From a virus: a DNA stretch of 64,000 bases. Below the pieces are notes generated by a model. The model was not told where the DNA came from, made no database searches, and saw only the letters and a list, made by a program, of their open reading frames with translations. Below, piece by piece: positions 3,468 through 28,467 of the stretch. The DNA is taken from IMG/VR virus record IMGVR_UViG_3300014293_000001, positions 3,732 through 67,731 of that record; one strand, 5' to 3'. Numbering within the stretch: position 1 is the stretch's first letter; every line of letters begins with the position of its first letter. A program made the translations under genes and the position numbers.

Positions 3468-3844
3468 GTTGGTTTAAAAAAATTAAAGAGAAGGTAAAAT
3501 CTTTCTTTAAAAAGGAGGACAAAGTGCCAGCTGGTATTGAGATTTATAATGAACAAAATAAATTAATTTTAGGAACTAATTATCGTGGTTTACGATTATT
3601 AAAAATGTTAAAACTGCAAGATTTGAAAGGTTCTACATCAGTTACGCCTAAAAATGGCGAAGAAATTCTTGCATTTGCTGTATTACATTGCTCTGACACA
3701 GTATGGCATTATAGTGATATTAAATATTGTAATGTCAATGGGCATACCATCTCGTGGGAATTTTCCGAGGGAAATGCATCATCTGCATTTGGTTCCAGTG
3801 AAAATGGACGTATTAATGTTTATATATTTGGGAGGGCAAAATAA
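3458..3844 (+). CDS. hypothetical structural-module protein (GTG start, uncertain)
   Basis: 128-aa ORF overlapping the end of the fibre gene; start codon uncertain. Confidence 0.45.
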   Translation: MELSWFKKIKEKVKSFFKKEDKVPAGIEIYNEQNKLILGTNYRGLRLLKMLKLQDLKGSTSVTPKNGEEILAFAVLHCSDTVWHYSDIKYCNVNGHTISWEFSEGNASSAFGSSENGRINVYIFGRAK

Positions 3845-7970: not shown

Positions 7971-9044
7971 ATGGATATTCAAAGTGTAATTGTAAGTGTT
8001 GAAGAACTCAATAAAACAAAAAAAGCGATTGCTGATGCAATTCGTGCTAAAGGTGTAAACTCAAAAGGTAGATTTTCTACTTTTGTAAATGAAATTAATT
8101 CCATTTCAGCTGGTGTTCCACAAGACTATTTAGATAACTTAGATACTGGTAATATATTTATCAAAAACAATCAGAATACACTAGAACCTGTTGGTAATAT
8201 TAGTGAAACACATGAAGATATTAAAGAGAATCAAGTAAATGTATATTCTTTATATGATATTAACAACGTGCAAATTGTAGATAGTCCATATAAAGATAGA
8301 ATTGACTATAATACAAATACACGAATATTTAGTGTTATGGTTAATAATCAAGAATTTGGTCATGTGCCATATACAGTCTTGAGTGCTAGTATTACGCCAC
8401 AACCAGCTGAAAATACAGACGGTAATGTAGTTATTAAATATACAACAAAAGGTCAAGAACATACATTAACAATGCCAATTAAAGATATTTCAATGGTACA
8501 ACCTAATAATATATACGTGATGATGCAAACTCCATTAGACGAACATGTCGATGACGCAAATTTCCAACAACATGTAAACGTCGAAGACTATATGCCACGT
8601 TTAACTCAATTAAAAGGTGTGCGTGTTAAAATAGGCGTATATCAATCTCGTCCAGAAATTTTTAATACACTCAATAATCTAGGTGTTTACAGTTCTATTA
8701 ATGCGATGTTAATCTTACCAAAAGATAATGGCGATTTTGAATACATACCAGTTAAACTTATCAAATCTCTAGCATCACAGACAATACCTTTACATGAAGG
8801 ATATAACGCTGCCGTGTTAGAATTAGAAGACAACAGATTAGTATTCCATTATTCTGATACAGCTGGTAGATTAAATCCTCAATGCATTGTTTCAACTGAA
8901 GACGGAGTTTATAGTACTGACACTACTATTTTAGACAAGATTAAACAGAATAAACAACGACCTAATTATATGATTGGTATTGCTATCCATCATGATGGCT
9001 CTCCTATCACTGAAGAAGAAGTGAAACAAATTGGTACATATTAA
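7971..9044 (+). CDS. hypothetical tail/structural protein
   Basis: AGGAGG SD; 357 aa. Confidence 0.55.
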   Translation: MDIQSVIVSVEELNKTKKAIADAIRAKGVNSKGRFSTFVNEINSISAGVPQDYLDNLDTGNIFIKNNQNTLEPVGNISETHEDIKENQVNVYSLYDINNVQIVDSPYKDRIDYNTNTRIFSVMVNNQEFGHVPYTVLSASITPQPAENTDGNVVIKYTTKGQEHTLTMPIKDISMVQPNNIYVMMQTPLDEHVDDANFQQHVNVEDYMPRLTQLKGVRVKIGVYQSRPEIFNTLNNLGVYSSINAMLILPKDNGDFEYIPVKLIKSLASQTIPLHEGYNAAVLELEDNRLVFHYSDTAGRLNPQCIVSTEDGVYSTDTTILDKIKQNKQRPNYMIGIAIHHDGSPITEEEVKQIGTY

Positions 9045-10543
9045 TGGCTCAAAAACGTGGTAAAACTAAAAAAATTGTTACCGTCAAATTAGATGATTTG
9101 ACTGGTGGTATGAACATTGCCAAGTCTCCTGAATTTATCAAAGATAATGAAGTTGTTCGCCTAGAAAACATGGAGTTTGATGTAGTAGGTAGTAAGTTAA
9201 GAACACGGAGGGGTTTAAGTACCCCTCTTGCTTCTTTTAATTCTCCTGTGACGCATGTATACAATGATTACGAAATGAATGATTTCTTCGTATTTCTTAA
9301 AAACAAAGAGGTGTACAGATATGAATTCGGCAAACAACCTATATTAATTGGTAAAATTAATGGGGATGCGGAACGCCCTTCTTGTTGTAAATGGAAAGGC
9401 TCTTTGTTAATCGCAAGTGGCTCTAAATTACAAGAATACAATTACCAAACACTTAAAGTAATTGAAGGTAGTCCTAATTGTGATATTGTCTTTACACGTT
9501 CATCTCGTGTAGTTGTCGCCAAAACAGGTTCTGATTTGTTAATTTATTCCGCTATTGGTGACGTAACCAGCTGGAATGAAAATAGTAATGATGCTTCAGC
9601 ACGTAAAGATGTTAATGTTGGTTATGGTGATGGTGGGGACATTATTGCTGTAGCTGAATTAGCTTCTGATGTATTGGTATTTAAAAGCAATGGCTATATA
9701 TATGACGTTCAAAATGAACCAGAAGAATGGTCTATTACTCTACTTGCTAATAATTCCGATGTTGTAAGTAGACACGCTTGTGATAATATTAACTCTGATA
9801 TTGTATTCGTTTCCACTCGTGGTTTAAAATCTGTTAAAAGTTCTCAAGTATATGCCAACTTCAATGTAATGGATATTGGTGATAATATCAATCCAGAACT
9901 TAAAGAAAATGTTACTAAACCATTTATTTCTGACTTGCGAAGGACAAAACAAATGGTAGTTAGTGGTGCTTGCAGTAGAGAAATGTTCGTATACCACTAT
10001 TGGACTGGTGGTTATACTAAATGGATTTTCCCTTATAATGTTACATCAATTTGTGAAAATCAATACCATGTATTATTAGCTATGAATACTGATGATACTC
10101 ATGGTGCTATTTACGAATTTGATTTTAAATATACAACAGATAATGGTTATTCTATTCATCAACTTATTCAATCTAAGGAAATGAGAGACACTCATAACCT
10201 TAATGCTTATAGAACGTATATTGATATTCAGTCTGAACAAAATGACGGTCGTGGATATATTTACATTAATGATGTACAATTAACGCACAAATGGACAACA
10301 ACAGAGCTACAAAGGGAATTTAAAACACAAATTCTTTCCCCAATTCTTCGGTTTAAATTTGAAACAGATGACCCAATTATCTTTAAATATATCTCTTTTG
10401 ATATAGTATTAGAAAGAGAAAGTATGGTTAGTGACTCCTCTGCAACAAGGGGGAGGCGAAAATCAGCACGGCGTAGAAAGGGTAGAGACCAGAATGACTT
10501 CTTGAAAGGAGCTCATAAAAATGGCGATAGCCCTTACAGCTAA
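9044..10543 (+). CDS. hypothetical large structural protein with a basic C-terminal tail
   Basis: TAATG coupling; 499 aa; C-terminus 'RGRRKSARRRKGR'. Confidence 0.55.
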   Translation: MAQKRGKTKKIVTVKLDDLTGGMNIAKSPEFIKDNEVVRLENMEFDVVGSKLRTRRGLSTPLASFNSPVTHVYNDYEMNDFFVFLKNKEVYRYEFGKQPILIGKINGDAERPSCCKWKGSLLIASGSKLQEYNYQTLKVIEGSPNCDIVFTRSSRVVVAKTGSDLLIYSAIGDVTSWNENSNDASARKDVNVGYGDGGDIIAVAELASDVLVFKSNGYIYDVQNEPEEWSITLLANNSDVVSRHACDNINSDIVFVSTRGLKSVKSSQVYANFNVMDIGDNINPELKENVTKPFISDLRRTKQMVVSGACSREMFVYHYWTGGYTKWIFPYNVTSICENQYHVLLAMNTDDTHGAIYEFDFKYTTDNGYSIHQLIQSKEMRDTHNLNAYRTYIDIQSEQNDGRGYIYINDVQLTHKWTTTELQREFKTQILSPILRFKFETDDPIIFKYISFDIVLERESMVSDSSATRGRRKSARRRKGRDQNDFLKGAHKNGDSPYS

Positions 10544-13787: not shown

Positions 13788-16700
13788 ATGGCAAGATGGA
13801 CAGACGGATTAGCTAATAGAAATGCTCAAGCCGCATATGAAAATAACTTAGCCCAATATGGTTCTGACTATATGGGTAAAGCCAGTTATGATGGTATTCT
13901 TGACGAGACGTTAGGCAACTTTAGTGCTGGTATTGATAGACTAGGTTCTGATATGTTAGGGTCCGTTGCATACGGACTTTCTAACATTGATGGAGATACA
14001 GCACAATGGCTTAGAGGTAAGGCTGAAAACGAAGCAAACTTTTATGCTAATCTAGCTGGCTATCGTAGCACAATGGGCGATACTGCTGATTTACCTTGGA
14101 ATGAGCAAGTAATCAATCCTCATTACTGGGCTGCTCAAATTGGTAATTTTGCAGGTAATACGGTACCACAAATCGGTATGGCTGTTCGTACAGCAGGTTT
14201 TGCAAGTGGTGCGATGAATGTTGGTAAAATTGGTGGTTTACTAGGTAGAGCTGGTTTAAGTGAAGGTTTAGCTGGTAGCGTTGCAAATGGTTTAGGTAAA
14301 GTAGCTAAATATGGTACAGAAATCGCAACAGGTGCTGGTTTAGAAAACCTACAAAATGCTGGTTCTATTTATAACGATTACCGTAATGCTGGTTATAATA
14401 CCGATGTAGCAGGTAGTGCATTTGAACAATCTTTAAACCAAGGTTGGGCACCTGCCGCATTAGATTATATTGCAGACCGTGCTGGTGTTTCTGGTAAAGC
14501 TGGTATGCTTGCTAGTGCGTTCGCTAAAGATGGCGGTAAACTTATTGCTAAAAGTATGCTTGGTAATGCTGTCAATAGTTCACTAGAAGGTTATACAGAA
14601 GCATGGCAACAAGCGATTGAAGGTCGTATCAAAGGGCAAGAAGGTTATGACCAAGTATCTATGTTAGACCCATCTACATGGACTGATGATATGTGGTCTG
14701 CCGCTAAAGACGCATTTAACGTATCTATGGCTGTTGGCGGTATGGGTAGTGCTGCTAGACATATTGGTAATAAGGCATTAAATAAAGCAGATGAAATGGC
14801 TGATTTAACAGCAGATAATGATATTATCAATGATGGTACTCAACCACCTATCGCAGTAAATGATACTCCAATGGCTGATACGGGTATTGATATTGCATCT
14901 GATGTTACTGAAACTCCTGATATTATCAACGAAACTCCACTTGGTAATGTAGAAATTGATGATATTTCTAACGCCTCCTATTCTCCTATGATGGAAGAAA
15001 GTGGTTTTGCGACTGCTGTCAATAAAGCACTTAATAATCGTCCACCTGAAGATTATGCAGAAATGATGAATAGACTTCAAGACGAACGTGCAAATATTAT
15101 GGAGTTGCATGGTGATAAACCTGCTGACCAACTTTCTCCACGTATGTTTGAAGAAAACTTCGTAAACGCTGGATTAGAACCAAAATCTGCACGATTAGTA
15201 TCTCGTAATCTTTACAATGATATGGTGGGTGCAAATAATACTGAGACGATTGAAGATGCAAGTGAAGTACCACAAGAAGAAAGTTTAGCAGATAAAGCTG
15301 ATAGACTTGGTGTAACATTGACAGATGCTGAACGTGCTAATTTAGAACGTGAAAACCCAGATAAAACATCTGTTCGTGAAGTCGAACGCCGTGTTGCAGA
15401 TACTGAAAAGAATAACGCATATAACGACCAAATTCGTGCTATAGCAGAACATCGTAAAGCGTATAATGAAGACAGATATGCTAATTCTCCTAATAAAACA
15501 TTCTTTGAAAACGAATATAAAGATAACCCATATAAAGCACAAGACGCAGCTTACCGTGTACATAATGCAATGGAAGCACGTAAAAAAGATGCTAAAAGTT
15601 CTGATATTAAAAAACAAGAGCAATCTAAAAATGTTCGTAACTACTTAGCTAAAGCTGGTATTAAACCTTCTAATGGTTATTCTACAGAAGAACTTAAAAA
15701 TATCGCAGAATACGCTAAACATATGGATAACCAAGAGCGTACTCCTCAAAACGTGCAAAGCTATATTCAAAACCGTGATATGGCTAAACAGGTTGAGAAT
15801 GTAATTAGTACTTTACCTCCTAAAGACAGTCCTGACTATTTACCAGCTAAACGACATTTAGCACAACAATTAAGTAAACACTTAGTAACAATGGGTGTTA
15901 ATGGTTTTGATGTAACTGGTCCACAATTTGAGAATGTACGTAAAATCTTATCTACGCAAGAACGACGTATGTTGCAAGATAATATTGATGAAGCTAAACG
16001 TGCTAAAGAAGAAACACGTAGAGCAAATTCACAATTAGCTGAACGTAAACCACAAGATACACAAAAGTTTGTTAATAATAAACAAGTAGCTGTATCTGAA
16101 GGTAACTTCGCCGCCGCTGATAAAGAAATGGCTGATTATCTTAACAGCGATAGAGTAACCAATGAAGGCTTACTAGAAATTCAGCGAAGATTATCTCACA
16201 CTAGTAGAGAACATAAACCTAAATTTAAACAAACACTTGATGCTTTGCAATACCGTGCACAAAAAGGAGATATTCTTGGTGGCAAGGTTGGTAATTATAA
16301 TGTAATGGTTCGTAAACCTAATTCCGAATGGAAAGCACGTGAGGTAAAGGATTACACCCGAACTATTGACCATGATAATCCTACAGGTGAAAATAGAGAA
16401 CCTATTGTTACTCCATACGAAGAACGTAAAGCGTTAAATCCTGCACAACCTAAAGAAAAGAAAAAGAAAACTCAGTCCAAATCTCGTACAGTAGACGTAA
16501 CTACAGAAGAACAAAAAGCTAAAATGCGTGATATAGACCAATTAGCGAAATTAAAATCTACATTACAACAGTTTGGTCAAATGAATGAAGAAACAGCTAA
16601 ACAGGCTATTGATTCTGTTCCTATGGAAACGAAGTATGGTAAAGAACAAAAACAAAAATATAAAGAATATGTTCTTCGTCAAGCTAACGAAGATACTGGT

Positions 16701-19700
16701 GACATTGATTTAAGTGATGATATTCAACAACCAGAAGACGTTATATCTAAACATAAAGATACACTAGAAAGTATCTCCAAAGATATTAAATATATTAAAG
16801 ACAATCCTCATATGTCTTTACGTGAATACCAACGTATTTATAATGGTATCGTTGCAAAGCGTAATCATTTAGTTCGTCAATCTCCTGAGTTTGTAGATAA
16901 CTGGAATAATATTTTTAATAAAGTACCTAAATATAAGGTACCTAATGTAACTTCATTAATGCAAGCTATCCGTAAAGGGGAAGTTAAAATTCCTCAAACA
17001 ATACTAAGTTCATTCATTGATAAACCAAATCATTTTGATGAAAACTTAAAAGCATGGTTTACTAAAGATTATAATTTAACTGACGTAGAAAATACACGTG
17101 ATTTTGATAAAACACGTAATGCTATCATTTTGCAAGCAATGCAAAAAGCTTCTACACGTATCAAAACTATTGGTATGCAACAGCTTATGGAAGAGCTAGA
17201 CGACAAGAACGGCAACCATTTATTAGGTCGTTTTGTAAACCGTGCTATTCAAATGTACCCTGTTTACAGAAATAAAGATAAATATAGAAGTTTATCTGGT
17301 AAAGTCGCTGCTAAACGATTATTTCCAGAAGGTGCATCTGATTTTAGTAGTATGAATAGCCCTCTAGCTAAACGTGTATATGCTGATGTTAAGAAAATTG
17401 TACCAGCTGTAATGTCTGACAGAATTGCTAAGAATGGCAAAATTCAAGAAGAACGAATGAAAGATGCCAAAACTAAGAACCAAATTCAATCTGCATTGCG
17501 TTTAGGTGATTATGTAGATGGTGTATTAAATGCACATATTCCTGATGAGCAAGGCGGTACATATGATACTAACATCAAGATGAACATTAAACTTGACGAC
17601 GACTTTAATGTAGAAGCACCAATTCCAGAAGATGTTGATATTGAAGCATTTAAAGAAGCATTGGACTATTACCTATCTGATATGGGTATTATCGCTAACG
17701 ACGAAATGGTCGAAGATGGTAATACAGTTAAATTTGAGGCATCTTATATTCCAGAAACTGTATTTAACAATAGTGCTTATATCGCACAAGCCGCGTGGAA
17801 TACATTAGGTGGTGTAGTTAGACAACACGGTCATGTAATCTTAGATAATGCAAATCTTGACGAAGCAGGTCGTAAAGCGTTACAAACAGAAGCTAAGCAA
17901 GCATGGAAACAAGCTGGGTTTGAACTTATTTCTAACGATGATACATATACTTTAGTACCTATTGAAGAAATTCAAAAATCTATTACAGGTAATAAACAAG
18001 TATCAAATAATAAAAATACTAAATTCCATGAACCCGGTCCTATTGAAATGGATATTTTACGTAAAGTTGCCGATAGAAGCGAAGGTCTTGGAAAATTGTC
18101 AAATGACGAAATGAAAACAATCTTACAATCTATTATGCACCAACTTGACGGAGACCGTGAAGCGTATGTCGCTGTATTACAATATCTCAAAAATCACCCT
18201 GATTTAGAGATATATGTTGCAGATAGAATGTTTGACATGGACTCTCTTGATTATACATTTGATGGTTTCTATATGCCGTCAACCAAGCGATTGTATATGA
18301 CAAAAGATGCTATTATACCTGATGGAGATGTATTCTTGCACGAATTATTGCACAGTGCAACACACTACACTGGCGTAAATGAAATTGTACCAAATGTAAA
18401 TGACGCACTTAGAACATTAAGAAAGGAATTGGAATATGATGAAGGACTTGCAGGACAAATATACAGAGCTTCTGAACCAAGTGAAATACTTACATTTAGC
18501 GGAGAGCACTCAAAGAAAGATGTTGAAAACGCTCTTCAAAATGCCGCAGGCAACATTGGAAGTGCAGCAATCACTATGCGTGATGCTCTCTCTAATACAA
18601 GTGAAGGCAAAACAATTCCAGATTTCCGCAAAGCTAGAAGTGGGAAAGATAATATCCCAGTTGGAGAAAATGCACAGCGAGAAAGAAGTAGACGACTTAT
18701 TCAAAGAGCTAATGCCATTCTACAAGAACAAAAAATAACACCAGAACATTTCGCTAAAATAGCACTGATGGCTGATATGAAAGCGGACGAACCGTTTGAA
18801 TATGCTGATGAACTTATGGACACTCCAGTTCCAGCTGAAGTAAAAATACTTGTAGCGGCGATGACTATCCCTGAAATACCACCTAAATTGGTTAATAACT
18901 ATGATGGTTATAAGTTTATGAATGAAATGATGTCGTATGGTGGCTCTAAATTATTCTCTACTCACACAGTTAAAGAACATTTACGAAATGCATTGAGTGA
19001 TATGAGACAAGTAGGTAAACAAAGTGAGCTCACCAAATTAAATAGAGTAAACAATAAACCAGCAGATGTTTTAAATGCGATGAAACAAAAGATAGATTAC
19101 GCTATTAGAGCTAACGATAGAATTGACCAAGCAGAACAAAAATTACTTGCTGATATTATGGAACATGGTGGTGGTATCATTGAACGTATTAACCCATCAG
19201 AAGATGGTATATCTTTTGCATGGTTCCGTAAAATGCTACAATCTCCATCATCTTTAGCACGTAAACTTGTCCCAGAATTAAAACCTATTATCCAAGCAGC
19301 TTATGTTGCCGCACGTACAGCACGATATAAGCGTAGAGAATATATCGCAGACCTTGATAAATATTTCTTATCCTTAGACGAAAAAGCTGGCGAAGACAAA
19401 CAAATTAATAAACTCTTTGATGATATTGATAAACGTGGTCGTGAATTTGCACAACCAGTTGCAGTCCGCATCAATGGAGAATTAAAATACGCTATTATTA
19501 AACCTAACGATGAATTCACAGAATTTGGTTTAGGCGATGATAAACGTATGCGTAAATTTGTTAAAGCGGAACGTGAAAAGGGTAACCATGTTTACGTTGG
19601 TATGTCTAAAGATGTATACCAAGTTATTTCTAGTAAAGATAATATTGCCGCATACAAAGATAAAGCAAATGCTAATAAAGTAGCGATTGATATGTCTAAA

Positions 19701-22190
19701 GCGTATGCTAAGCAATTAGGTTATAGCGATAACGTATGGAATGCATATGTTGGTGTGCGTAATACACTTAACAAAATTCATAAAGACGTAAATGATAACC
19801 AAGTTGCACGTGGTAAAGAACCGTCTGCTGATTTATGGGGTTATATCCCTCGTGAACATAAACGATATGGTGTATATCGTGTTGAAGTTAAATATGACCC
19901 AGAAATAAAAGATTATCGAAAAAAATATACAGCATTAACATCTTTTGATACAGAACATCAAGCTAACCGATTTGTTGATAGCTTAACTCCTGAAAAGGGT
20001 ATAGCATATGCAACAATTCATCGTGATAGATACCAAGCAGATGCTTCTCAATCTTATGAAGGTTACTATTCCAATCTTACAGAAGAAGAAGAAAACTTAA
20101 ATAAAGTATATGAAAAAATGTCTACTGAAGATGCAGCAGCATTATTCAATAAAGTACAAGGTAATTATACAGAGACTAAGAAATTCATTGACCATTTCTT
20201 AAAAGGTAAAGATAAGTCTATGACTTATGATGATTTTCAAAACTTAATTAATAACAAAGAACGAATGAAAGAAATCGGTCTTGACCCTCGTAAATTACAA
20301 AAAGAAGTAGCACAAGCTAACTTTGAAAAATTATTGAAGAAAGATAAAGATGGTCTTTTAACACATGAAAATGTGAGTGCATATTTATACCGTAGTTCTG
20401 GGGCTCAAATGTGGAATAAACATAATCTTAAACGTGCTGGTGTTATGGGTCATAACGAAGACCACACAGCAGCTATTTACCATTATGCTATGACACAAGC
20501 TAAGTATCAAGGTAATGCTCCATTCTTAGACTTTGCTACACGCTATTACGAAGAAGCTTTTGGTGAAAACTATGAAAAGCAATATGGTCGTAATGGTACT
20601 GGTGCTAAAAATGCACGACAAGATATTGTCCATGATTATATCCAACGTGTAATTGGTGCACCAAATAAAGTAGATAAAGTCCTCAATCGTATTGGTCGTG
20701 AGTTACCATATATTGGTAATTTCATGGTTAAATACATGGGTGATAATTGGGTAACTAAATTACTCAACCGTAATATGCAAGCAATGGCTGTATTTAAACT
20801 AGGTGTATTCAGACCTACAGCCGCTATCGCACAGTTTGGTACATTAGCCAACGTAGCTGCTTTAACAGGGTTTACTCCTGAATTACGTTACGCAATGAAA
20901 GAAGCTGGTCGTGGTGGTAAAGATGGTAAATACGGCAAGTTATTTGATGACCTTGAAGTATATGAAGAAAATGCAAACCAAGCATCTGAATTCTTTAGCG
21001 ATACACTAGACTATCGTAAATTAAAGGTTCATGGTATTAATATTGGTAAAGCATTTGATTTATCTATGAAAGGTTTCATGAAAGCCGACTCTTATACACG
21101 CAAAGTAGCCGCTATTGTAGCATACGAAAAATACTGTAAAGACCACAATATGGACCCTATGCAACCAAATAAAAATGACCCAGATGGTTATCGTAAAGCT
21201 ATGGAATACGCAAAAGATTTTGTTGTAAAAACAAACTTTGACTATAGTGATATTGATAGCCCTAGATTGTTTACTCAATTTGGTACATTAGGTAAAACAT
21301 TATTACAATTTAAAAAGTTCGGTGTTAAAGAAGCTGAATTCTTATTCACTGCATTTAAACGTAATGATGGTTCTATTGACTATAAAGGTTTAGGCAGATT
21401 TATGAGCATCACAATGGGTATGGCTGGTTTCATGGGCTTACCATTTATGGGTGCTGGTGATGATATGCTTAAATGGTTGACAGGTAAGGGATTATCTGAC
21501 CGTGCTAAAGACCTTGCTTATGAATGGGCTGGTAACGACCAAACTAAACAAAAAATTGCCTTACTTGCTATGATGGGTGCACCATCTATGTTCGGTGTAG
21601 ACTTTAGCCGTAATGTAGGTTTTGGTGATTTAACTCCAAGTAATGGTAGTGATTTGTTAGGTCCTACATTATCTACATGGGGCTCTCTTGCTGACGTAGC
21701 TAGAAATAGCCATGATTGGAGAGATGTAGTTGCTGGTATTGGTCACTCATTATCACCACAACTTGGTAACGTATACCAAGCGTATACAGGCAATATGCGT
21801 GACTGGAAAAATGCTGAAGATAAAGGTGCTTATACACCTGCTGAACGCATGATGAAGTTAATGGGCTTCAGACCTGCACGTGAATCTGTAGAAAATGATT
21901 TAGCTTATAGATTGACTATGGCAAATCAAGAGTTAAAAGAAGGTAAAAAACAAGCAATCAATGATTTCTTGAGAGACCCTTCTGATGAAAACCGTAAACG
22001 CCTTAAAGATTTTGGTGTTACTGGTAAACAACTTAAAGATGCTAGAGACTTAAAACAAATGTCTGCTATTGACAAGGCTAATAAATACCTACCTAAGAAA
22101 TCTTCTGTAGAAGCTGATAAGGTTAAGGAACAAGCTAATGTTTATAATACATTTGTTGACGGTATGTATGATGGATTGGAGGAAGAATAA
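13788..22190 (+). CDS. giant (2800 aa) virion-associated protein: ejection / tape-measure-like / polyvalent, with a zincin HExxH motif
   Basis: AAAGGAG SD; Gly/Ala-rich N-terminus; HELLH at 18339-18353; hydrophobic Gly-rich segments near the C-terminus; lies between the lysozyme-domain gene and the endolysin. Confidence 0.55.
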   Translation: MARWTDGLANRNAQAAYENNLAQYGSDYMGKASYDGILDETLGNFSAGIDRLGSDMLGSVAYGLSNIDGDTAQWLRGKAENEANFYANLAGYRSTMGDTADLPWNEQVINPHYWAAQIGNFAGNTVPQIGMAVRTAGFASGAMNVGKIGGLLGRAGLSEGLAGSVANGLGKVAKYGTEIATGAGLENLQNAGSIYNDYRNAGYNTDVAGSAFEQSLNQGWAPAALDYIADRAGVSGKAGMLASAFAKDGGKLIAKSMLGNAVNSSLEGYTEAWQQAIEGRIKGQEGYDQVSMLDPSTWTDDMWSAAKDAFNVSMAVGGMGSAARHIGNKALNKADEMADLTADNDIINDGTQPPIAVNDTPMADTGIDIASDVTETPDIINETPLGNVEIDDISNASYSPMMEESGFATAVNKALNNRPPEDYAEMMNRLQDERANIMELHGDKPADQLSPRMFEENFVNAGLEPKSARLVSRNLYNDMVGANNTETIEDASEVPQEESLADKADRLGVTLTDAERANLERENPDKTSVREVERRVADTEKNNAYNDQIRAIAEHRKAYNEDRYANSPNKTFFENEYKDNPYKAQDAAYRVHNAMEARKKDAKSSDIKKQEQSKNVRNYLAKAGIKPSNGYSTEELKNIAEYAKHMDNQERTPQNVQSYIQNRDMAKQVENVISTLPPKDSPDYLPAKRHLAQQLSKHLVTMGVNGFDVTGPQFENVRKILSTQERRMLQDNIDEAKRAKEETRRANSQLAERKPQDTQKFVNNKQVAVSEGNFAAADKEMADYLNSDRVTNEGLLEIQRRLSHTSREHKPKFKQTLDALQYRAQKGDILGGKVGNYNVMVRKPNSEWKAREVKDYTRTIDHDNPTGENREPIVTPYEERKALNPAQPKEKKKKTQSKSRTVDVTTEEQKAKMRDIDQLAKLKSTLQQFGQMNEETAKQAIDSVPMETKYGKEQKQKYKEYVLRQANEDTGDIDLSDDIQQPEDVISKHKDTLESISKDIKYIKDNPHMSLREYQRIYNGIVAKRNHLVRQSPEFVDNWNNIFNKVPKYKVPNVTSLMQAIRKGEVKIPQTILSSFIDKPNHFDENLKAWFTKDYNLTDVENTRDFDKTRNAIILQAMQKASTRIKTIGMQQLMEELDDKNGNHLLGRFVNRAIQMYPVYRNKDKYRSLSGKVAAKRLFPEGASDFSSMNSPLAKRVYADVKKIVPAVMSDRIAKNGKIQEERMKDAKTKNQIQSALRLGDYVDGVLNAHIPDEQGGTYDTNIKMNIKLDDDFNVEAPIPEDVDIEAFKEALDYYLSDMGIIANDEMVEDGNTVKFEASYIPETVFNNSAYIAQAAWNTLGGVVRQHGHVILDNANLDEAGRKALQTEAKQAWKQAGFELISNDDTYTLVPIEEIQKSITGNKQVSNNKNTKFHEPGPIEMDILRKVADRSEGLGKLSNDEMKTILQSIMHQLDGDREAYVAVLQYLKNHPDLEIYVADRMFDMDSLDYTFDGFYMPSTKRLYMTKDAIIPDGDVFLHELLHSATHYTGVNEIVPNVNDALRTLRKELEYDEGLAGQIYRASEPSEILTFSGEHSKKDVENALQNAAGNIGSAAITMRDALSNTSEGKTIPDFRKARSGKDNIPVGENAQRERSRRLIQRANAILQEQKITPEHFAKIALMADMKADEPFEYADELMDTPVPAEVKILVAAMTIPEIPPKLVNNYDGYKFMNEMMSYGGSKLFSTHTVKEHLRNALSDMRQVGKQSELTKLNRVNNKPADVLNAMKQKIDYAIRANDRIDQAEQKLLADIMEHGGGIIERINPSEDGISFAWFRKMLQSPSSLARKLVPELKPIIQAAYVAARTARYKRREYIADLDKYFLSLDEKAGEDKQINKLFDDIDKRGREFAQPVAVRINGELKYAIIKPNDEFTEFGLGDDKRMRKFVKAEREKGNHVYVGMSKDVYQVISSKDNIAAYKDKANANKVAIDMSKAYAKQLGYSDNVWNAYVGVRNTLNKIHKDVNDNQVARGKEPSADLWGYIPREHKRYGVYRVEVKYDPEIKDYRKKYTALTSFDTEHQANRFVDSLTPEKGIAYATIHRDRYQADASQSYEGYYSNLTEEEENLNKVYEKMSTEDAAALFNKVQGNYTETKKFIDHFLKGKDKSMTYDDFQNLINNKERMKEIGLDPRKLQKEVAQANFEKLLKKDKDGLLTHENVSAYLYRSSGAQMWNKHNLKRAGVMGHNEDHTAAIYHYAMTQAKYQGNAPFLDFATRYYEEAFGENYEKQYGRNGTGAKNARQDIVHDYIQRVIGAPNKVDKVLNRIGRELPYIGNFMVKYMGDNWVTKLLNRNMQAMAVFKLGVFRPTAAIAQFGTLANVAALTGFTPELRYAMKEAGRGGKDGKYGKLFDDLEVYEENANQASEFFSDTLDYRKLKVHGINIGKAFDLSMKGFMKADSYTRKVAAIVAYEKYCKDHNMDPMQPNKNDPDGYRKAMEYAKDFVVKTNFDYSDIDSPRLFTQFGTLGKTLLQFKKFGVKEAEFLFTAFKRNDGSIDYKGLGRFMSITMGMAGFMGLPFMGAGDDMLKWLTGKGLSDRAKDLAYEWAGNDQTKQKIALLAMMGAPSMFGVDFSRNVGFGDLTPSNGSDLLGPTLSTWGSLADVARNSHDWRDVVAGIGHSLSPQLGNVYQAYTGNMRDWKNAEDKGAYTPAERMMKLMGFRPARESVENDLAYRLTMANQELKEGKKQAINDFLRDPSDENRKRLKDFGVTGKQLKDARDLKQMSAIDKANKYLPKKSSVEADKVKEQANVYNTFVDGMYDGLEEE

Positions 22191-22723
22191 TGGCATTTTA
22201 CACATTAAATGATATTGCGTATTTAGCCGCACACTGTAATGCGGATAAGGTTACTTTACATTGGAGTGGTGGGGGGTATGAAAATACCTCTCCATATTAC
22301 CACTTAAATATCCTAGGTGATGGTCGTGTATGGTCAGACTTTGATAGTTTTGATGTAGCTGGTAAACATACATGGCATCGTAATACAGGTAATATTGGTG
22401 TATCTATTCTGTGCTGTGCAGATGCTAGTGTAGATACAGATGGTAACGTGACATGGGGTACTGTTCCACCAACTGATGCACAAGTTAATAAAATGGCTAT
22501 GATTATCAAAACCATTGCTGATGCTAAAGGTTGGGAAATTGATAAAGAACATTTTAAAACTCACAACGACTGGGCAATTATCGATGGATATTCTATCTAT
22601 GACAATGACCCTGATATGCGTTGGGACTTAATTGCGTTACCACAAGAAGATGGAGACGGAGGTGCTATTATTCGTGGAAAAGCTATCTGGTATCATTACC
22701 ATCCTGAAGAATGTAAAGATTAA
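22190..22723 (+). CDS. N-acetylmuramoyl-L-alanine amidase-type endolysin (Amidase_2/PGRP-like)
   Basis: TAATG coupling; 'TLHWSGGG...YHLNILGDGRVW...HTWHRNTGNIGVSI' pattern. Confidence 0.6.
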   Translation: MAFYTLNDIAYLAAHCNADKVTLHWSGGGYENTSPYYHLNILGDGRVWSDFDSFDVAGKHTWHRNTGNIGVSILCCADASVDTDGNVTWGTVPPTDAQVNKMAMIIKTIADAKGWEIDKEHFKTHNDWAIIDGYSIYDNDPDMRWDLIALPQEDGDGGAIIRGKAIWYHYHPEECKD

Positions 22724-23273
22724 AATTTATATTATCCTTATAATTGCGTTATTTGCGTTCTGTGGGCTGTTTTATATATTCCATAGGCAAACACACGTGG
22801 AACAATCTACACCCACCTTACAGCCTAAAATAATGAACGAGAAGGCTACTGTAGGAACAAAGACTACTGTATCTTATATCCCAAAAGAACGAGAACTGGT
22901 TTACGTGAATAATGTGCCTACATATGTGAAAGAAGATACCGATGTAGAAGCTAATATTGATAAGCCTGCTGTTACAGTTAAAGTAAATGGCAAGAAACAA
23001 AAGTTTGATTTACAACAAAATGAAACTCAAAAGTTTGAAGATGGTAAGGTGGTATTAGACCAAAAATCTACAGTAGAGTTTGATATTAAAGTACCAGAAC
23101 GCCATGAATTAAATGTATACGGTCAAGAAGAATTCCGTGCAGGTAAATTTCACAGTCAAGTTGGTATTGATAAACAAAATGGCAAATTAGTATACGGTGC
23201 TAAATACGATATTACAGACAAAGAACCTGTATATTATGTACGCTATAATCTAGTAAAAATGTACACAAATTAA
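22674..23273 (+). CDS. N-terminally anchored membrane protein of the lysis region (holin/spanin-like role is speculative)
   Basis: GTG at 22674 sits 9 nt after GGAGGTG; TM 'IYIILIIALFAFCGLFYIF'. The ORF track starts at TTG 22632 without an SD. Confidence 0.45.
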   Translation: MEKLSGIITILKNVKIKIYIILIIALFAFCGLFYIFHRQTHVEQSTPTLQPKIMNEKATVGTKTTVSYIPKERELVYVNNVPTYVKEDTDVEANIDKPAVTVKVNGKKQKFDLQQNETQKFEDGKVVLDQKSTVEFDIKVPERHELNVYGQEEFRAGKFHSQVGIDKQNGKLVYGAKYDITDKEPVYYVRYNLVKMYTN

Positions 23274-23277
23274 AAGC

Positions 23278-23306
23278 TTGACAAATTGATTTTTATATGT
23301 TACTAT
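23278..23306 (+). promoter_or_regulatory. sigma-A-type promoter P0
   Basis: TTGACA (23278-83), 17 nt, TACTAT (23301-06). Confidence 0.55.
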
Positions 23307-23352
23307 TACTATAGACATAATTATTTCCTCCTCAGCGTGGTCAGGGGTGGGC

Positions 23353-23382
23353 TTGACGGCTCGCCCTCGGCTGTGCTACAAT
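23353..23382 (+). promoter_or_regulatory. GC-rich cassette promoter P1
   Basis: TTGACG (23353-58), 18 nt, TGC-TACAAT (extended -10, 23377-82). Confidence 0.55.
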
Positions 23383-23421
23383 CCTCACAAACCCAGCAAC
23401 GGTGCGGTGTCAGCAAAGGTG

Positions 23422-23450
23422 TTGACAGCTGACAGCTAGGGTGCTACAAT
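23422..23450 (+). promoter_or_regulatory. GC-rich cassette promoter P2
   Basis: TTGACA (23422-27), 17 nt, TGC-TACAAT (23445-50). Confidence 0.65.
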
Positions 23451-23499
23451 GTGAGTAGTGGTGGAGCCACGGAACTTGCTCTACCGAAAGGAGAAAACT

Positions 23500-23694
23500 A
23501 TGGCAAAAAGAAATTTTGGTGTTTCGATGTGTGGTCGTATTGAGTATACTCGAAGAAAGCCAAGAAAAGCGTATTGTAAAAATTGTATACATTGTTTATT
23601 GACTGAACATGGTACAGAAATGTACTGTAAAAAGTATAAAAGATTTAAGTCAATAAGACAATCAAAAAAGCCATCTTGTTTAGTAGCAAGATAG
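23500..23694 (+). CDS. 64-aa highly basic Cys-rich (zinc-ribbon-like) protein
   Basis: AAAGGAG SD 7 nt before ATG; 'MAKRNFGVSMCGRIEY..CKNCIHC..YCKKYKRFK'. The ORF track starts earlier, at 23458. Confidence 0.55.
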   Translation: MAKRNFGVSMCGRIEYTRRKPRKAYCKNCIHCLLTEHGTEMYCKKYKRFKSIRQSKKPSCLVAR

Positions 23695-24556
23695 CACTCT
23701 ATATGAGCAGAGGTGGACCTGTAATGTGTACGGGCGGACAACGGTCTTGAAAACCAATATAGAAGCCGACAGGGACTGACATATAGACTAAATATATCAG
23801 TTGATATCATATCGAGATAGTCGTTGACACTGCAAGCCGACTTTAAAAAATAACAGGGGGCGGACTCACCATTCCTCAATAGGGGCTGTTGGGCACGCCC
23901 TTTTGTCGTGCACTTTCCTAGATTTTGTCCCGTCGTAGATGGCAGTCGAAACAAACTCTTGTGAGTGGTAGATAAAGCTACACCTAGGCTACCTTGGTAT
24001 TAACCATGAAGTTTCGATAGTATACCAACAGTATACGTTGCTCCCATGTATATGGGGGCAATACCTCGGCACTACCTTGGGCAGTCATCAAGTATAGAAT
24101 ACAGTAGATATTCACTAAGATATATATAATACAATCAGCTACGAAGTAGCTACAAACGAAGTGCGTAGTAACAGATATAGAGTAGATGCTCAACATTACT
24201 ACCAATAAGTGATACAGTTACTTGGTATTCATAACTGGTGCGTTCGCAGAATATCTTCACTAGCGTTCAGATATTGATTAGTTGATAATACACATAAAGA
24301 AAAGAAATTACGAACAGAAATGTTCCCTCTTGGTATTATCTACAACTACAGCAACTAACGATGTGAGTAATTCACCTAGCGTAGCGGTTATACAGTATCA
24401 GTATTTTAGGTATTTAAAACACTACCACTTAAAGCGTAATAACATTACTACAACTTAGTATATAAAACAAAGAAGAATAGCATTACTCAGCGTAATATTG
24501 AATTACACTTCGTAATACGTTACACTTAATAGACCCCTTTATGGGGTCCTTTTTTA
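23695..24556 (+). ncRNA. candidate large structured non-coding RNA (3' portion of the P0/P1/P2 transcript)
   Basis: No + strand ORF of 60 aa or more. The only - strand ORFs lack an SD. Many hairpins, e.g. 24038-24061 and 24137-24151. The segment is bounded by the terminator at 24532-24556. Confidence 0.45.
24532..24556 (+). terminator. Rho-independent terminator
   Basis: GACCCC (24532-37), TTTAT, GGGGTC (24543-48), then CTTTTTTATTT. Confidence 0.8.
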
Positions 24557-24557
24557 T

Positions 24558-24586
24558 TTGACAAATTTAGTATAATACGATATACT
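24558..24586 (+). promoter_or_regulatory. sigma-A-type promoter for the replication-side operon
   Basis: TTGACA (24558-63), 17 nt, TATACT (24581-86), immediately after the terminator. Confidence 0.6.
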
Positions 24587-24605
24587 ATATTAAAGGAGGT
24601 ATAAT

Positions 24606-24782
24606 ATGTTAAGGGAAGAAACAATACGTATTATAGAAAGCTATCACCATGATTTAGGTAATCAAAGCTGGTTATCTACATATCTCAGTAACTGTAAAAC
24701 TGGTGATAGTTTAGAAACTATTTCAAGTAGAGAATTAAGTTTAATATTAGCTTATATGGAAGATGATTACGCAGATTTATAA
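24606..24782 (+). CDS. 58-aa hypothetical protein (below the ORF-track cutoff)
   Basis: AAAGGAGG SD; ATG 24606; stop 24780-82. Confidence 0.45.
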   Translation: MLREETIRIIESYHHDLGNQSWLSTYLSNCKTGDSLETISSRELSLILAYMEDDYADL

Positions 24783-24970: not shown

Positions 24971-25552
24971 ATGAGCAAATATATCATACACAAAATACCT
25001 GTAGATATTAGCGATGATAAACGTGAAGAATATATTCAATATATGAAAAATATATCAAATAATGATAGAAATGCGTATTTTGTTTCACTATCAAAATATG
25101 GTAATTATTTAATTATTGATATTTCCGAAACATCGGAACCTGTTTTACAGATTAAAACTATGTTACTAGGAGAAAGAGAATTTATTAAATCTATTAGCCA
25201 TGAAATATTACAAATTTCATACGATAAAGACAGTAATGGTATGTTTATAAAAAAAATGATGATACACCCTATGTTAAATGGGTTTTCAATGTCAAGTCCA
25301 TATGCATACTATTATTTTAGAAATAATAATGAAGAATCTCAAATTAGGATAGTTGAAAAAAGTATAGTACCACTTGCACTATATACTGGACACATTGAAA
25401 AAATATTAATGCCAAGCTCTAGGGTATGTGAAAGTGAAGTGGCTGAACTTAAAAAATTAATTCAAGAATATGAGTATTCTATATACCGCTATATGATTTG
25501 CAATATTATTCAAAATCATTGTGATGTAGAAAAATATGAGGTAAATATATGA
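24971..25552 (+). CDS. hypothetical protein
   Basis: AAAGGAG SD; 193 aa; very AT-rich. Confidence 0.55.
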   Translation: MSKYIIHKIPVDISDDKREEYIQYMKNISNNDRNAYFVSLSKYGNYLIIDISETSEPVLQIKTMLLGEREFIKSISHEILQISYDKDSNGMFIKKMMIHPMLNGFSMSSPYAYYYFRNNNEESQIRIVEKSIVPLALYTGHIEKILMPSSRVCESEVAELKKLIQEYEYSIYRYMICNIIQNHCDVEKYEVNI

Positions 25553-28467
25553 ATTTTACAGATTTACATAGTCATAGCTTTTATAGTAGGCGTGATGCAT
25601 ATTCATCTTTAGAAGAACGCATACAACGTGCTAAAGAAATAGGATATTCAGCTGTATCTTTAACAGACCACGGTACTACATCAGGTTTAACTTCTCACTA
25701 TTTAGCTTGTCAACAAGCTGGTATTAAACCCATTCTTGGTATGGAAGCATATTTTTCATATGATTTAGATATTAAAACACGTGATAGTTACCACCTTATT
25801 TTGTTGGCAAAAAATACAGAAGGTTTATATAACTTGCGTAGATTATCTACATTTGGTGCTTATCATCATTACTATAAACCATTAATTGATTATAATGCTT
25901 TACGGCAATATAGTAATGGCATTATTGTTAGTACTGCTTGTGTAGCTGGTCCATTGCGTAATGAATTATTACGAGACGAATTTGTTGAAATCATGACTGA
26001 TATTTTTAAAGATGATTTCTATTTAGAGGTACAGCCACATGATTTTCCATTACAATGGGAATATAATAAAATTGTAGAAGAACTTGGTAAACAATATAAT
26101 ATTCCTATCATCGTTACTGGTGATAGTCATTATGCTTATCCAAAACAAATGCAGTCTCATCGTGATTTCTTATTATTAGATAGAACACTAGCTGATAAAA
26201 AGGCACAAATTGACGATGCTTATACTGAAAAAGCTAAAGAGAAATACCAAGAAGAATATAATCATATGTTAGAATACTATGGTAGTCGTGATTACCATAT
26301 GTGGACTATTGATGAATTTAAAGCTGTAATTCCTAATCAAGAATACTATGATAATGTTGGTAAAATCATTGATAAGTGTAATGTAGAAATACCATTTGGT
26401 GAAAACCATTATCCTGTATTCCCTGTTAAAGACCCTGCTAAATACGTAAGAGACCATTGTGCAGATGGATATAAACTACATCGTATTGCAAAGAAAGGCA
26501 ATAAGGATGTATACGTGAACCAAATAACACATGAATTATCCGTATTAAATCAGCTTAATTATAACAATTATTTTTGTATTATCCATGATATGTTACAATG
26601 GGCAAAACGAAATGGTATGAGAACTGGTGCAGGTCGTGGTTCTGTTTGTGGTAGTTTAGTTGCATATTTAATGGGGATAACAGAAATTGACCCAATTCAA
26701 TATAACCTTGTATTTGAAAGATTTGCTAACCCTGAGCGTGTTACCAACCCAGATATAGATTGTGATTTCCAACAAAGTAGACGGCAAGAAATTATTAAAT
26801 ATGTACAAGATAAATATGGTTATGCATACCCTGTTAGAACATTTGGCTTCCTAGGTCCAAAAGCGGCAGTGCAACATGCTGGCAGAGTACTTGGTCGTAA
26901 AGCATCTGATATGACTGCTATATCTAAAAATATCAATGATATCGTAGATATTAAAGATAAAGAAGTTAGAGAAATGGCTAGCACAGTAGTGAATCGTTTA
27001 GTAAACTATGGTACTCATGCTAGTGCAGTAGCCGTATTCCCTATCGACCCTGCTCAATGGTGTGCTATCGAGTATCAAGATGGGCAATATGTAGCGGCAG
27101 AAGATTTCCATATCTTAGAAAAACAAGGTATTCTTAAATTAGATATTCTTGGTTTAGCTACATTAGATATTATTGATGATGTGTTAAAGCGTGTCAAAGA
27201 TTGTGATATACATTCCATCCCTTTACAAGATGACAAGACTGCACAATTATTACAATCTGGTAATACTACTGGAATATTCCAAATTGAGTCTGATGTAATG
27301 ACTAATATTGTAACTAATATCCATTCTAAAAGTGTATATGATTTAGTTGATACCGTAGCTATAGGAAGACCGGGAGTATTAGATGTAGGAATGGATAAAG
27401 TATTTATAGCACGTAGGCAGGGTAAAGAGCCTGTTAAATATTTACACCCATTACTTGAGCCAATTCTAAAAGATACAGAAGGTGTTATCTTATATCAAGA
27501 GCAAATAATGCAAATTGTGCAAGCATTGGCAGGATATACAATGGGTGAAGCAGATACTCTTAGACGTATTATTGGGCGTAAAGAATTGGATAAAATTAAT
27601 ACAGCTGTTGATGAGTTTGTTGAGCGTGCAGGCAAGAATGGTATTAGTGAAGATGTTATTCGTCCTATTGCAGAACAAATGATTGCTTGTGGTTCTTATG
27701 TATTTAATAGAGGTCATAGTGCAGCATATGGTTTAACTGCATGGCGATGTGCTTATTTAAAAGCTCATTACCCAGAAGCGTATTATGCATCTATTCTTGA
27801 TATGAATTTTGGAGATAAAGAAAAGCTATCAGTGTTTATTAATGATGCCAAGAAACATGGTATTAATATTATACCACCTGATATATATGGTGATATAAAA
27901 TGTACTACAGGTAAAAATATTGTATGTTTAGGGTTAGGTGCTATAGCAGGATGTAGTAATTTACACGCATTTAAATTTGAGCGTGGTAAAGCATTTTTAG
28001 AACTCAACCAAACAATGAACATGACACAACTCAAAGGTTTAATTTATAGTGGTGCTATTGATGATGGCGGTGATAGAAATGATTACATACAATATATTAA
28101 ATGGTTAAAAGATAAACGTAAATCTAAAGGTGAATACGTATTTGATGCAAATCATAAAGATAATCTAAGTAAAGGTGCAATGGAATTATCTGTATTAGGT
28201 TATACATTCCATAGTATTTTTGATGAATACGATACAAGTATCTGCGTAGGAAATGTTAAACCAGCCATTATCTTATCTGTTACAGCACGGAAAACTAAGA
28301 AAGGTAAACCATATGCGTTCTTAACGGTGCAAACACCTACAGGTGTAGAAAAATTAGTAACATTTGAAGTTGATTTTACTATGTTTACCAAAGGAAATGT
28401 ATACGCACTACGAATTAGGGACGGCGTGGTGGTCGATGCCTGCTCAATAAACCGCTTGACCGCCTGA
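25549..28467 (+). CDS. dnaE: DNA polymerase III alpha-subunit-like replicative polymerase (PHP + pol core + OB)
   Basis: 'DLHSHSFYS' PHP motif; 'GRGSVCGSLVAYLMGITEIDP'; catalytic 'PDIDCDF'; C-terminal OB-like segment. Confidence 0.85.
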   Translation: MNFTDLHSHSFYSRRDAYSSLEERIQRAKEIGYSAVSLTDHGTTSGLTSHYLACQQAGIKPILGMEAYFSYDLDIKTRDSYHLILLAKNTEGLYNLRRLSTFGAYHHYYKPLIDYNALRQYSNGIIVSTACVAGPLRNELLRDEFVEIMTDIFKDDFYLEVQPHDFPLQWEYNKIVEELGKQYNIPIIVTGDSHYAYPKQMQSHRDFLLLDRTLADKKAQIDDAYTEKAKEKYQEEYNHMLEYYGSRDYHMWTIDEFKAVIPNQEYYDNVGKIIDKCNVEIPFGENHYPVFPVKDPAKYVRDHCADGYKLHRIAKKGNKDVYVNQITHELSVLNQLNYNNYFCIIHDMLQWAKRNGMRTGAGRGSVCGSLVAYLMGITEIDPIQYNLVFERFANPERVTNPDIDCDFQQSRRQEIIKYVQDKYGYAYPVRTFGFLGPKAAVQHAGRVLGRKASDMTAISKNINDIVDIKDKEVREMASTVVNRLVNYGTHASAVAVFPIDPAQWCAIEYQDGQYVAAEDFHILEKQGILKLDILGLATLDIIDDVLKRVKDCDIHSIPLQDDKTAQLLQSGNTTGIFQIESDVMTNIVTNIHSKSVYDLVDTVAIGRPGVLDVGMDKVFIARRQGKEPVKYLHPLLEPILKDTEGVILYQEQIMQIVQALAGYTMGEADTLRRIIGRKELDKINTAVDEFVERAGKNGISEDVIRPIAEQMIACGSYVFNRGHSAAYGLTAWRCAYLKAHYPEAYYASILDMNFGDKEKLSVFINDAKKHGINIIPPDIYGDIKCTTGKNIVCLGLGAIAGCSNLHAFKFERGKAFLELNQTMNMTQLKGLIYSGAIDDGGDRNDYIQYIKWLKDKRKSKGEYVFDANHKDNLSKGAMELSVLGYTFHSIFDEYDTSICVGNVKPAIILSVTARKTKKGKPYAFLTVQTPTGVEKLVTFEVDFTMFTKGNVYALRIRDGVVVDACSINRLTA

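Follow-up and report, generated by a model that had tools for sequence, protein, structure and literature searches.

An EGFOA-family RNA at the lysis/replication junction of ~65-kb phages extends beyond its curated model

Introduction

What does a phage encode in an 862-nucleotide (nt) gap between its lysis genes and the gene for a DnaE-type polymerase, when the strand on which the neighboring genes lie offers no evident coding sequence there? The question is posed by a 64,000-nt stretch of viral DNA (hereinafter the window: positions 3,732–67,731 of the IMG/VR record IMGVR_UViG_3300014293_000001; all coordinates below count from the window start), which is phage DNA by its gene content and family matches, including tail-fibre and tail-lysozyme genes. 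The gap (23695–24556) lies downstream of genes coding for an Amidase_2 endolysin (22190–22723) and a protein of 213 amino acids (aa), and is in turn followed by small genes, the DnaE-type polymerase (25549–28467) and a Rad52-like protein. A preliminary description of this locus had proposed that the gap specifies a highly expressed, hairpin-dense RNA of about 0.85 kb, either of the GOLLD/ROOL type or of a new class. Several of the observations on which it drew are borne out: no + strand open reading frame (ORF) of at least 60 aa lies between 23694 and 24556, the longest being a 58-aa frame with a TTG start (24282–24458); the 5′ part is richer in GC (0.46–0.47 at 23700–24000 versus ~0.30 in the flanks, and 0.28–0.34 in the 3′ tail); and every hairpin that it pointed out is found where it was placed. 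We accordingly examined what kind of RNA this might be, how far its conserved structure extends, and in what genomic setting it recurs.

Results

The gap contains an EGFOA RNA

All 4227 Rfam models were run against the window, and the segment 23200–24700 was additionally scanned with permissive settings. The sole match in the window was the EGFOA RNA (RF02955), recovered on the + strand at 23912–24018, where it scores 72.3 bits (gathering score 37.7; e-value 1 × 10−12, or 4.7 × 10−11 for the window) and covers model positions 1–108. The GOLLD and ROOL models had no match in the window at the gathering score, nor in 23200–24700 at e-values up to 10, and the choice between those types and a new class is thus replaced by a known family that is neither. 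Judged by this match, the + strand of the gap specifies a non-coding member of the EGFOA family, which is known but functionally unexplained. Sub-threshold matches to mir-1244, U6 and other models were rejected as spurious, as was one to preQ1-II at 24516–24606 (27 versus 47 bits), whose alignment uses the hairpin of a terminator and the Shine–Dalgarno (SD) sequence of the next gene.

EGFOA was first reported in a 2017 screen (Weinberg et al., 2017, Nucleic Acids Research 45:10811), is classed as 'Gene; sRNA' in Rfam, and is described in a July 2026 preprint as a putative small RNA of unusually large gene-free regions (bioRxiv 10.64898/2026.07.01.735769). The same preprint presents cryogenic electron microscopy (cryo-EM) of two members of ~117–120 nt: Vei_C1A6 from Veillonella seminalis, a trimer solved at 2.96 Å, and Pae_6186 from Paenibacillus vortex, a strand-exchanged dimer; RNA-only homo-oligomers have been shown in vitro for these two alone (bioRxiv 10.64898/2026.07.01.735769). 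The window's core consists of a conserved 5′ strand, an outer helix (23945–23952/24011–24018), two enclosed hairpins (23955–23966 and 23967–23993) and an insert hairpin (23995–24006). The 5′ blocks CCnAGAU...CCGUCnUAG and the loop GUAAAGCUAnACCUnGG match the consensus and were present in 27 of the 27 loci of our first round. The hairpin at model positions 28–40, which follows CCGUCnUAG, is deleted in the window; it is a variable rather than a defining feature, being likewise missing from the accepted and solved member Vei_C1A6. Both RNAs in fact have the same layout, lacking the first consensus hairpin and carrying an extra one before the closing strand, so that by its architecture the window's core is of the same subtype as the Veillonella seminalis RNA. 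By analogy with that homolog it would fold as in the cryo-EM structure and self-associate.

The RNA occupies a fixed position in a family of phages

BLASTN searches with the gap and with the surrounding 10 kb against 50,697 GenBank phage records returned no match. Relatives were instead gathered by pattern scans of viral and metagenome contigs, by a scan of genome contigs that added four instances, and by a further viral scan. A loose 17-mer pattern used on genome contigs gave about 4 real loci in 120, the remainder being mostly chance, and two matches of an anchored viral pattern (L236 and L243) were discarded as chance occurrences inside ORFs. The outcome was a set of ~100 EGFOA instances, forming 57 clusters at 97% identity and 23 superclusters.

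Forty-six of these instances share the synteny of the window: a giant protein, an amidase, a 200-aa protein, a terminator or promoters, a small ORF, the gap and DnaE. Many of the syntenic contigs measure 64–69 kb, and the giant protein of the window is represented upstream of the lysis genes by a single 2800-aa ORF (13788–22190, + strand). More distant lineages (L173/L208/L240, L244/L245 and L246) have the RNA in the same position. Among them L246, a 63-kb viral contig with the gene order of the window, carries the exact Vei_C1A6 sequence (EGFOA region at 8978–9179 of that contig, + strand), with its DnaE 49% and its amidase 59% identical to the window's. These comparisons support a fixed placement of the RNA, between the lysis and replication modules, in ~65-kb phages that are relatives of a Veillonella seminalis prophage. 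Because the syntenic L246 carries the Veillonella seminalis sequence, this phage family probably has its host among the Negativicutes and not in a classical Gram-positive bacterium, and the earlier assignment to a Gram-positive phage is accordingly doubtful.

The core is 81–90% identical where flanking genes are 64–75% identical. On either side of it the locus is a mosaic: comparisons of window positions 23647–23901 with L037, L026 and L052, and of 24067–24531 with L010 and L048, showed that a 5′ module (versions V1 and V2) and a 3′ tail (versions D1 and D2) have been swapped independently, with breakpoints at the edges of the core.

Covariation extends the fold to about 340 nt

The ~200 nt that separate the core from the small ORF exist in replaceable versions: V1, found in the window, and V2, which has sub-versions of its own. 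On a structure-blind MAFFT alignment of this 5′ side (A1) we identified four helices that stay complementary through the V1/V2 replacement. Helix a (23718–23722/23769–23773, spanning 23718–23773) reads CCUGU/ACAGG in the window and AUAUAC/GUAUAU or CAUAC/GUAUG elsewhere, with four of its five pairs changed on both sides. It encloses hairpin b (GGU-CUUGAAA-ACC, 23743–23755), which has four different stems across the lineages (three of three pairs changed on both sides) around a conserved CUUGAAA loop. Hairpin c (AUAUC-aguu-GAUAU, 23794–23807) shows at least four different complementary stems, and helix d (GUCG/CGAC or GUUG/CGAC, 23819–23842), followed by the A-rich AAAAAAUAAC, occurs with the stems GUCG/CGAC, GUUG/CAAC, AUUG/CAAU and AUCG/CGAU. 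Across A1, 90.6% of cells pair as against 33–42% when the partner strand is slid as a control, 11 of the 17 pairs are compensatory, and none of 500 shuffles reached the observed covariation score. Between these helices and the core lies a GC-rich segment with overlapping GGGCG/CGCCC and GCACG/CGUGC complements (23856–23911, read from the sequence), which is specific to V1, being present in window-type loci and substituted in V2-type loci. An AAUAAC element 5′ of the core is also seen in unrelated EGFOA loci.

On the 3′ side, two hairpins lie outside the Rfam model, g (24020–24025/24031–24036) and h (GCUCCCAU-guau-AUGGGGGC, 24040–24059), with a conserved UACCU 3′ of hairpin h, within 24020–24066. 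In an alignment of the core with these hairpins (A2), 92.5% of cells pair (33–45% with the partner slid) and 14 of 35 pairs are compensatory; the outer helix and the two enclosed hairpins are kept by compensatory changes (89–100% paired), hairpin g is paired in 81.5% and hairpin h in 95.2%. A covariance model built from A2 found full-length matches in all syntenic lineages (105 bits in L244, 48 bits in L246) and weaker full-length ones in other superclusters. The alignment fitted to that model (A5, 41 distinct rows) gives 93.7% of cells paired, 84.6% for g and 97.7% for h, with all 35 pairs compensatory, those of g and h included, and each pair of the outer helix and the two inner hairpins changed on both sides; these figures are inflated by the fitting of the alignment to the structure under test. 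As to the strand, the curated helices hold 32 G·U against 5 A·C cells, most of the G·U cells coming from two fixed positions.

The covarying structure thus reaches ~195 nt 5′ and ~45 nt 3′ of the Rfam model, and a folded + strand unit of ~340 nt (23718–24059), larger than the 108-nt model, is well supported by the comparative alignments. In this respect the preliminary description holds: the gap contains a conserved, structured, non-coding + strand RNA that exceeds any curated model, and the covariation whose absence was to refute it is present over 23718–24059. Sequence shared well outside the Rfam model was also seen in other superclusters (L093, L116, L196, L153 and L229), with GGAAUAACAC... 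upstream and GGGGGGUUUCUGUCCGUUUCCAGCC ~150–250 nt downstream, and since such flanking sequence is shared there too, the EGFOA family in general seems to be longer than its curated model.

Folding energies give a more restricted picture. Against 60 dinucleotide-preserving shuffles per sub-region, the core with its 3′ hairpins (23912–24066) is more stable than expected on the + strand (z=−2.8), the 5′ module is not clearly so (z=−0.8), and the two halves of 24067–24531 fold no better than their shuffled counterparts (z=+0.66 and +0.58). The whole 862 nt, against 20 shuffles, gives no decisive result, the − strand (z=−4.04) folding better than the + strand (z=−1.96). The characterization of the gap as hairpin-dense therefore stands for 23912–24066, whereas in the 5′ module and the tail hairpins do not exceed chance by this measure.

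The AT-rich tail repeats a strand-specific motif

The fold is followed by an AT-rich tail of ~465 nt (24067–24531, + strand). RNAalifold applied across all lineages found essentially no shared structure 3′ of 24066, and the D1 and D2 tails cannot be aligned by BLASTN although the genes flanking them can. Compared within a lineage, tail and neighboring genes are conserved to a similar degree (86–88% versus 79–89%). A C-GAA-G triloop hairpin at its start (24137–24151 in the window) is nevertheless found in every lineage including the distant L246; tabulated directly, sequence by sequence, it has eight different stems. Both D1 and D2 tails are closed by AUUAC/GUAAU hairpins (24431–24523 in the window). 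In D2-type tails together with L244/L245, 13 of 51 predicted pairs are compensatory, and among them is a terminal hairpin whose stems covary around a fixed GAA/GAA internal loop.

The motif ACGAAGU recurs in the tail of every lineage, in one to four copies. Its density in the tails of 15 representatives is 5.6 per kb for the + strand (32 copies) and 0.88 per kb for the − strand (5 copies), as compared with 0.05 per kb across the remainder of these loci, a more than 100-fold enrichment; in the window it stands at 24141 (+), 24156 (+) and 24507 (−). These comparisons support a tail that is weakly structured but presents ACGAAGU repeatedly, partly as C-GAA-G triloops. A single ornate RNA of 0.85 kb is hence not demonstrated, because the tail lacks excess stability and a structure common to all lineages and shows almost no compensatory change among its close relatives: of the RNA first proposed, ~340 nt are upheld, and the 3′ 465 nt, over half of its length, are no stabler than shuffled sequence.

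Transcription unit and promoter-proximal ORF

Three promoter-like sites lie upstream on the + strand, each with an extended −10 TG and scoring 10–11 of 12 by comparison to consensus: P1 (TTGACA-17-TACTAT, 23278–23306), P2 (TTGACG-18-TACAAT, 23353–23382) and P3 (TTGACA-17-TACAAT, 23422–23450, 11/12), in agreement with the triple promoter described earlier; the region of P1 is kept in L037, L206 and L235. The canonical terminator said to close the gap is likewise present (GACCCC-UUUAU-GGGGUC, hairpin at 24532–24548, with the following U-run to 24556), and directly after it stands the promoter-like site of the downstream replication block (24558–24586, 11/12). Positions 23278–23302 and 24558–24582 (+ strand) are 76% alike over 25 nt (TTGACAAATT...), which suggests that the two are regulated along similar lines. 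We do not propose the internal promoter-like sequence at 23824 (TTGACA-16-AAAAAT), as it is conserved in neither V2- nor L173-type loci. In L010, L045, L177 and L222, repeated boxes (cttcatcaaa / cttcataaaaaagtacTTGACA) surround promoters scoring 12/12, 5′ of the small ORF; these may be operator sites of a phage regulator.

In the relatives, a terminator after the lysis block is followed by two or three promoters of 11–12/12, the small ORF and then the gap. The gap ends in a terminator, with transcription restarting at a new promoter, only in D1-type loci; D2-type loci have a promoter but no terminator between the RNA and the next genes, and in L208 and L246 the gap runs straight to the DnaE start codon with neither. 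Because the terminator is confined to D1-type loci, the RNA may form a transcript of its own here and a leader in other loci. In the window, two or three strong tandem promoters would drive a transcript with a 64-codon ORF first and the RNA untranslated, and transcription would stop at the terminator, thereby ending the RNA there.

This first cistron (23500–23694, + strand, SD AAAGGAG) codes for a small, very basic 64-aa protein with the pattern C-x2-C-x2-C...C...C, of which Cys29 and Cys32 are not invariant. It is kept as a protein in three phage lineages (group A, L173/L208 and L244/L245), lacks any family match, and has matches in the protein database that are all close relatives. We rejected it as an obligatory partner of the RNA, since it is missing in L246 and in other EGFOA superclusters; in L246 a mini-ORF of 11 codons (MCMELMSGKPV), preceded by a strong SD, takes its place. 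On the − strand, a hairpin and T-run resembling a terminator (23670–23695) overlap the end of the small ORF. They accompany the V1-type variant of the ORF alone, and no conserved promoter for antisense transcription was seen.

EGFOA in other gene neighborhoods

Away from this phage family, the neighbors of EGFOA are recombinases or integrases, helix-turn-helix (HTH) proteins or convergent genes, and not replication genes; in L152 and L229 the gene after EGFOA is convergent. The intervals free of ORFs of at least 70 aa around these loci mostly measure 250–1070 nt, three being shorter, in GC-rich or gene-dense settings. In six diverse loci, the surroundings of EGFOA yielded neither an 'EGFOA-associated' family nor any other at e-values up to 0.1. 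Individual loci show further associations: one metagenome contig, L214, has two EGFOA copies 4.2 kb apart (2968–3047 and 7148–7227, − strand); in two unrelated loci, L174 (796–1761, −) and L204 (12423–12493, +), tRNA genes lie 0.3–1 kb from EGFOA; and in L182 (2294–2367, −) an int-alpA RNA just below threshold (34.1 versus 35.8 bits) lies ~260 nt away.

Discussion

Taken together, we think it probable that the gap gives rise to an EGFOA-family RNA of ~340 nt with a motif-bearing tail, our best guess being that this RNA is abundant early, self-associates and acts in trans. Under this proposal, strong tandem promoters would yield abundant early RNA; the RNA would self-associate through its core, as does the Veillonella homolog, a trimer in vitro; and, in a role in trans at which we can but guess, it might bind a protein during the switch to phage replication, either as a scaffold or as a decoy, with the ACGAAGU repeats as possible contacts. 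A trans-acting product is favored over a leader because the next gene is convergent in L152 and L229. Several points weigh against this proposal. High early expression is a prediction from consensus promoters, and the scaffold or decoy function, together with any ACGAAGU-binding partner, is speculation. The covarying lineages are few, with ~5–8 deep branches, so that the covariation counts are not independent events, quite apart from the inflation of those on A5. Among 13 distinct close relatives with D1 tails, 91 of 504 columns vary with a single predicted pair compensatory, and the alignment has the lower energy on the − strand, in keeping with a tail no more stable than its shuffles. Finally, in the D2, L208 and L246 types the missing terminator means that the RNA physically leads the replication genes, where a cis role fits equally well.

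A broader possibility, which we put forward tentatively and as rather short of probable, is that EGFOA makes up no more than the conserved center of a much larger phage RNA, one that measures at least 340 nt and perhaps the whole 0.6–0.9 kb, with exchangeable 5′ domains and an ACGAAGU tail. Such an RNA would be the first element to be transcribed in the early replication operon of ~65-kb phages of Negativicutes, and its accessory parts would tune oligomer assembly or recruit a protein.

Less likely, in our view, is a cis-acting leader, that is, an untranslated RNA at the 5′ end of the early replication operon that controls this operon, for example through processive antitermination across 24532–24556 and later terminators, through mRNA stabilization or through regulated processing. 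It would account well for the RNA being always promoter-proximal and upstream of the DnaE block, for its running into the DnaE start codon without an intervening promoter or terminator in L208 and L246, and for the D2-type loci that have no terminator before the next genes. The terminator directly after the RNA in the window is also the layout expected of an element like put of phage HK022. However, the downstream genes of the window and of other D1-type loci have their own promoter (11/12), and other superclusters have a following gene that is oppositely oriented, or recombinase genes beside the RNA. The Rfam classification as an sRNA gene also speaks against a leader, as does the isolated core forming defined oligomers by itself (bioRxiv 10.64898/2026.07.01.735769).

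It is similarly doubtful that the core and its immediate hairpins, ~150–200 nt, are alone functional, the remainder being mosaic spacer left by recombination of phage modules. The mosaic conservation itself, with its V1/V2 and D1/D2 versions and breakpoints at the core edges, argues for such a view, as do D1 and D2 tails that cannot be aligned between alignable genes, a tail z of about +0.6 and the lack of a tail structure common to all lineages. Yet the 5′ helices still pair through the V1/V2 replacement, the tail within lineages matches its neighboring genes in conservation, no lineage, not even L246, lacks the triloop hairpin or the strand-specific ACGAAGU, and the D2-type tails have 13 compensatory pairs.

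We regard as quite improbable a role at the DNA level, in which the tail would be the phage replication origin, its short repeats would be initiator sites and transcription would activate or prime replication. Transcribed non-coding origins with tandem promoters occur in T7 and in the lactococcal phage c2, and the tail is placed directly upstream of the replication module, has a GC content of 0.28–0.34 and holds clustered short and inverted repeats. Nevertheless, the repeats are strand-biased (32 versus 5), a bias that double-stranded binding sites do not need; non-palindromic GAA/GAA internal loops are kept while the stems covary, which is typical of RNA; no inflection of GC skew was seen near 24 kb; and EGFOA loci elsewhere are not beside replication genes. 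As for an unrecognized protein gene, the two − strand ORFs pointed out earlier do exist (23481–23954, 157 aa; 23984–24205, 73 aa), but neither they nor the 58-aa + strand frame have a Pfam or PHROG match, the − strand ORFs are shortened to 132, 103 or 98 aa or missing in relatives with the 58-aa frame likewise not kept, they run antisense to a unit whose neighboring genes are all on the + strand, and the 157-aa ORF overlaps both the conserved + strand ORF and the RNA core, so that coding by these frames or by small + strand peptides is scarcely credible and the conserved intact ORF once considered fatal to an RNA interpretation has not emerged.

EGFOA has combined an unusual solved quaternary structure with no known biology. 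The present comparison provides a biological setting, namely a phage-borne RNA just 3′ of strong promoters and fixed at the lysis/replication junction, along with evidence for a natural RNA that is about threefold longer than the constructs studied so far and bears a repeated motif. This suggests that domains affecting assembly may escape structural studies limited to minimal cores. It also offers a tractable system, for the solved Veillonella seminalis RNA is found in a 63-kb viral contig of the same layout.

Among known RNAs, CsrB and RsmZ titrate a protein by means of repeated loop motifs, and the tail invites comparison with them in its way of working: ACGAAGU is repeated one to four times per tail, strand-specifically and partly in hairpin loops. 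The comparison is one of analogy, the motif being another, its copies far fewer and homology absent. With the pRNA of phi29 (120–170 nt) the RNA shares its phage-encoded, promoter-proximal and self-associating nature; it differs in lacking any sequence or model match in the full Rfam scan and in the type of phage, and the position of EGFOA beside integrases or recombinases in prophage-like elements argues against a role in the packaging motor. The GOLLD and ROOL RNAs are presented in a 2025 Nature study (PMC12286853) as functionally unexplained RNA-only homo-oligomers from phages and prophages of Bacillota. Location in a phage non-coding gap is common to them and the RNA of the window, and the tRNA proximity in L174 and L204 recalls their reported association with tRNAs; the window, however, has no match to either model and no tRNA gene in its 64 kb, and its ~340 nt form mostly simple hairpins as against a multi-junction fold of 500–800 nt.

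The closest comparison remains EGFOA itself. In common with the described family, the RNA of the window has a full-length match to the model, the conserved 5′ single-stranded block, the outer helix, the two inner hairpins, the GUAAAGCUAnACCUnGG loop and an unusually long gene-free gap, here of 862 nt. It departs from the curated model and the solved constructs of 108–120 nt in its further ~195 nt on the 5′ side and ~45 nt on the 3′ side, and in the tail with a repeated motif that follows. In literature other than the supplement of the 2017 screen, which describes the motif, we found no published statement on the fixed position between lysis genes and DnaE or on co-transcription with a small Cys-rich ORF. 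To a known family the comparison adds domains on both sides of the core, a motif repeated in the tail, a phage setting and a connection to the Veillonella RNA of solved structure.

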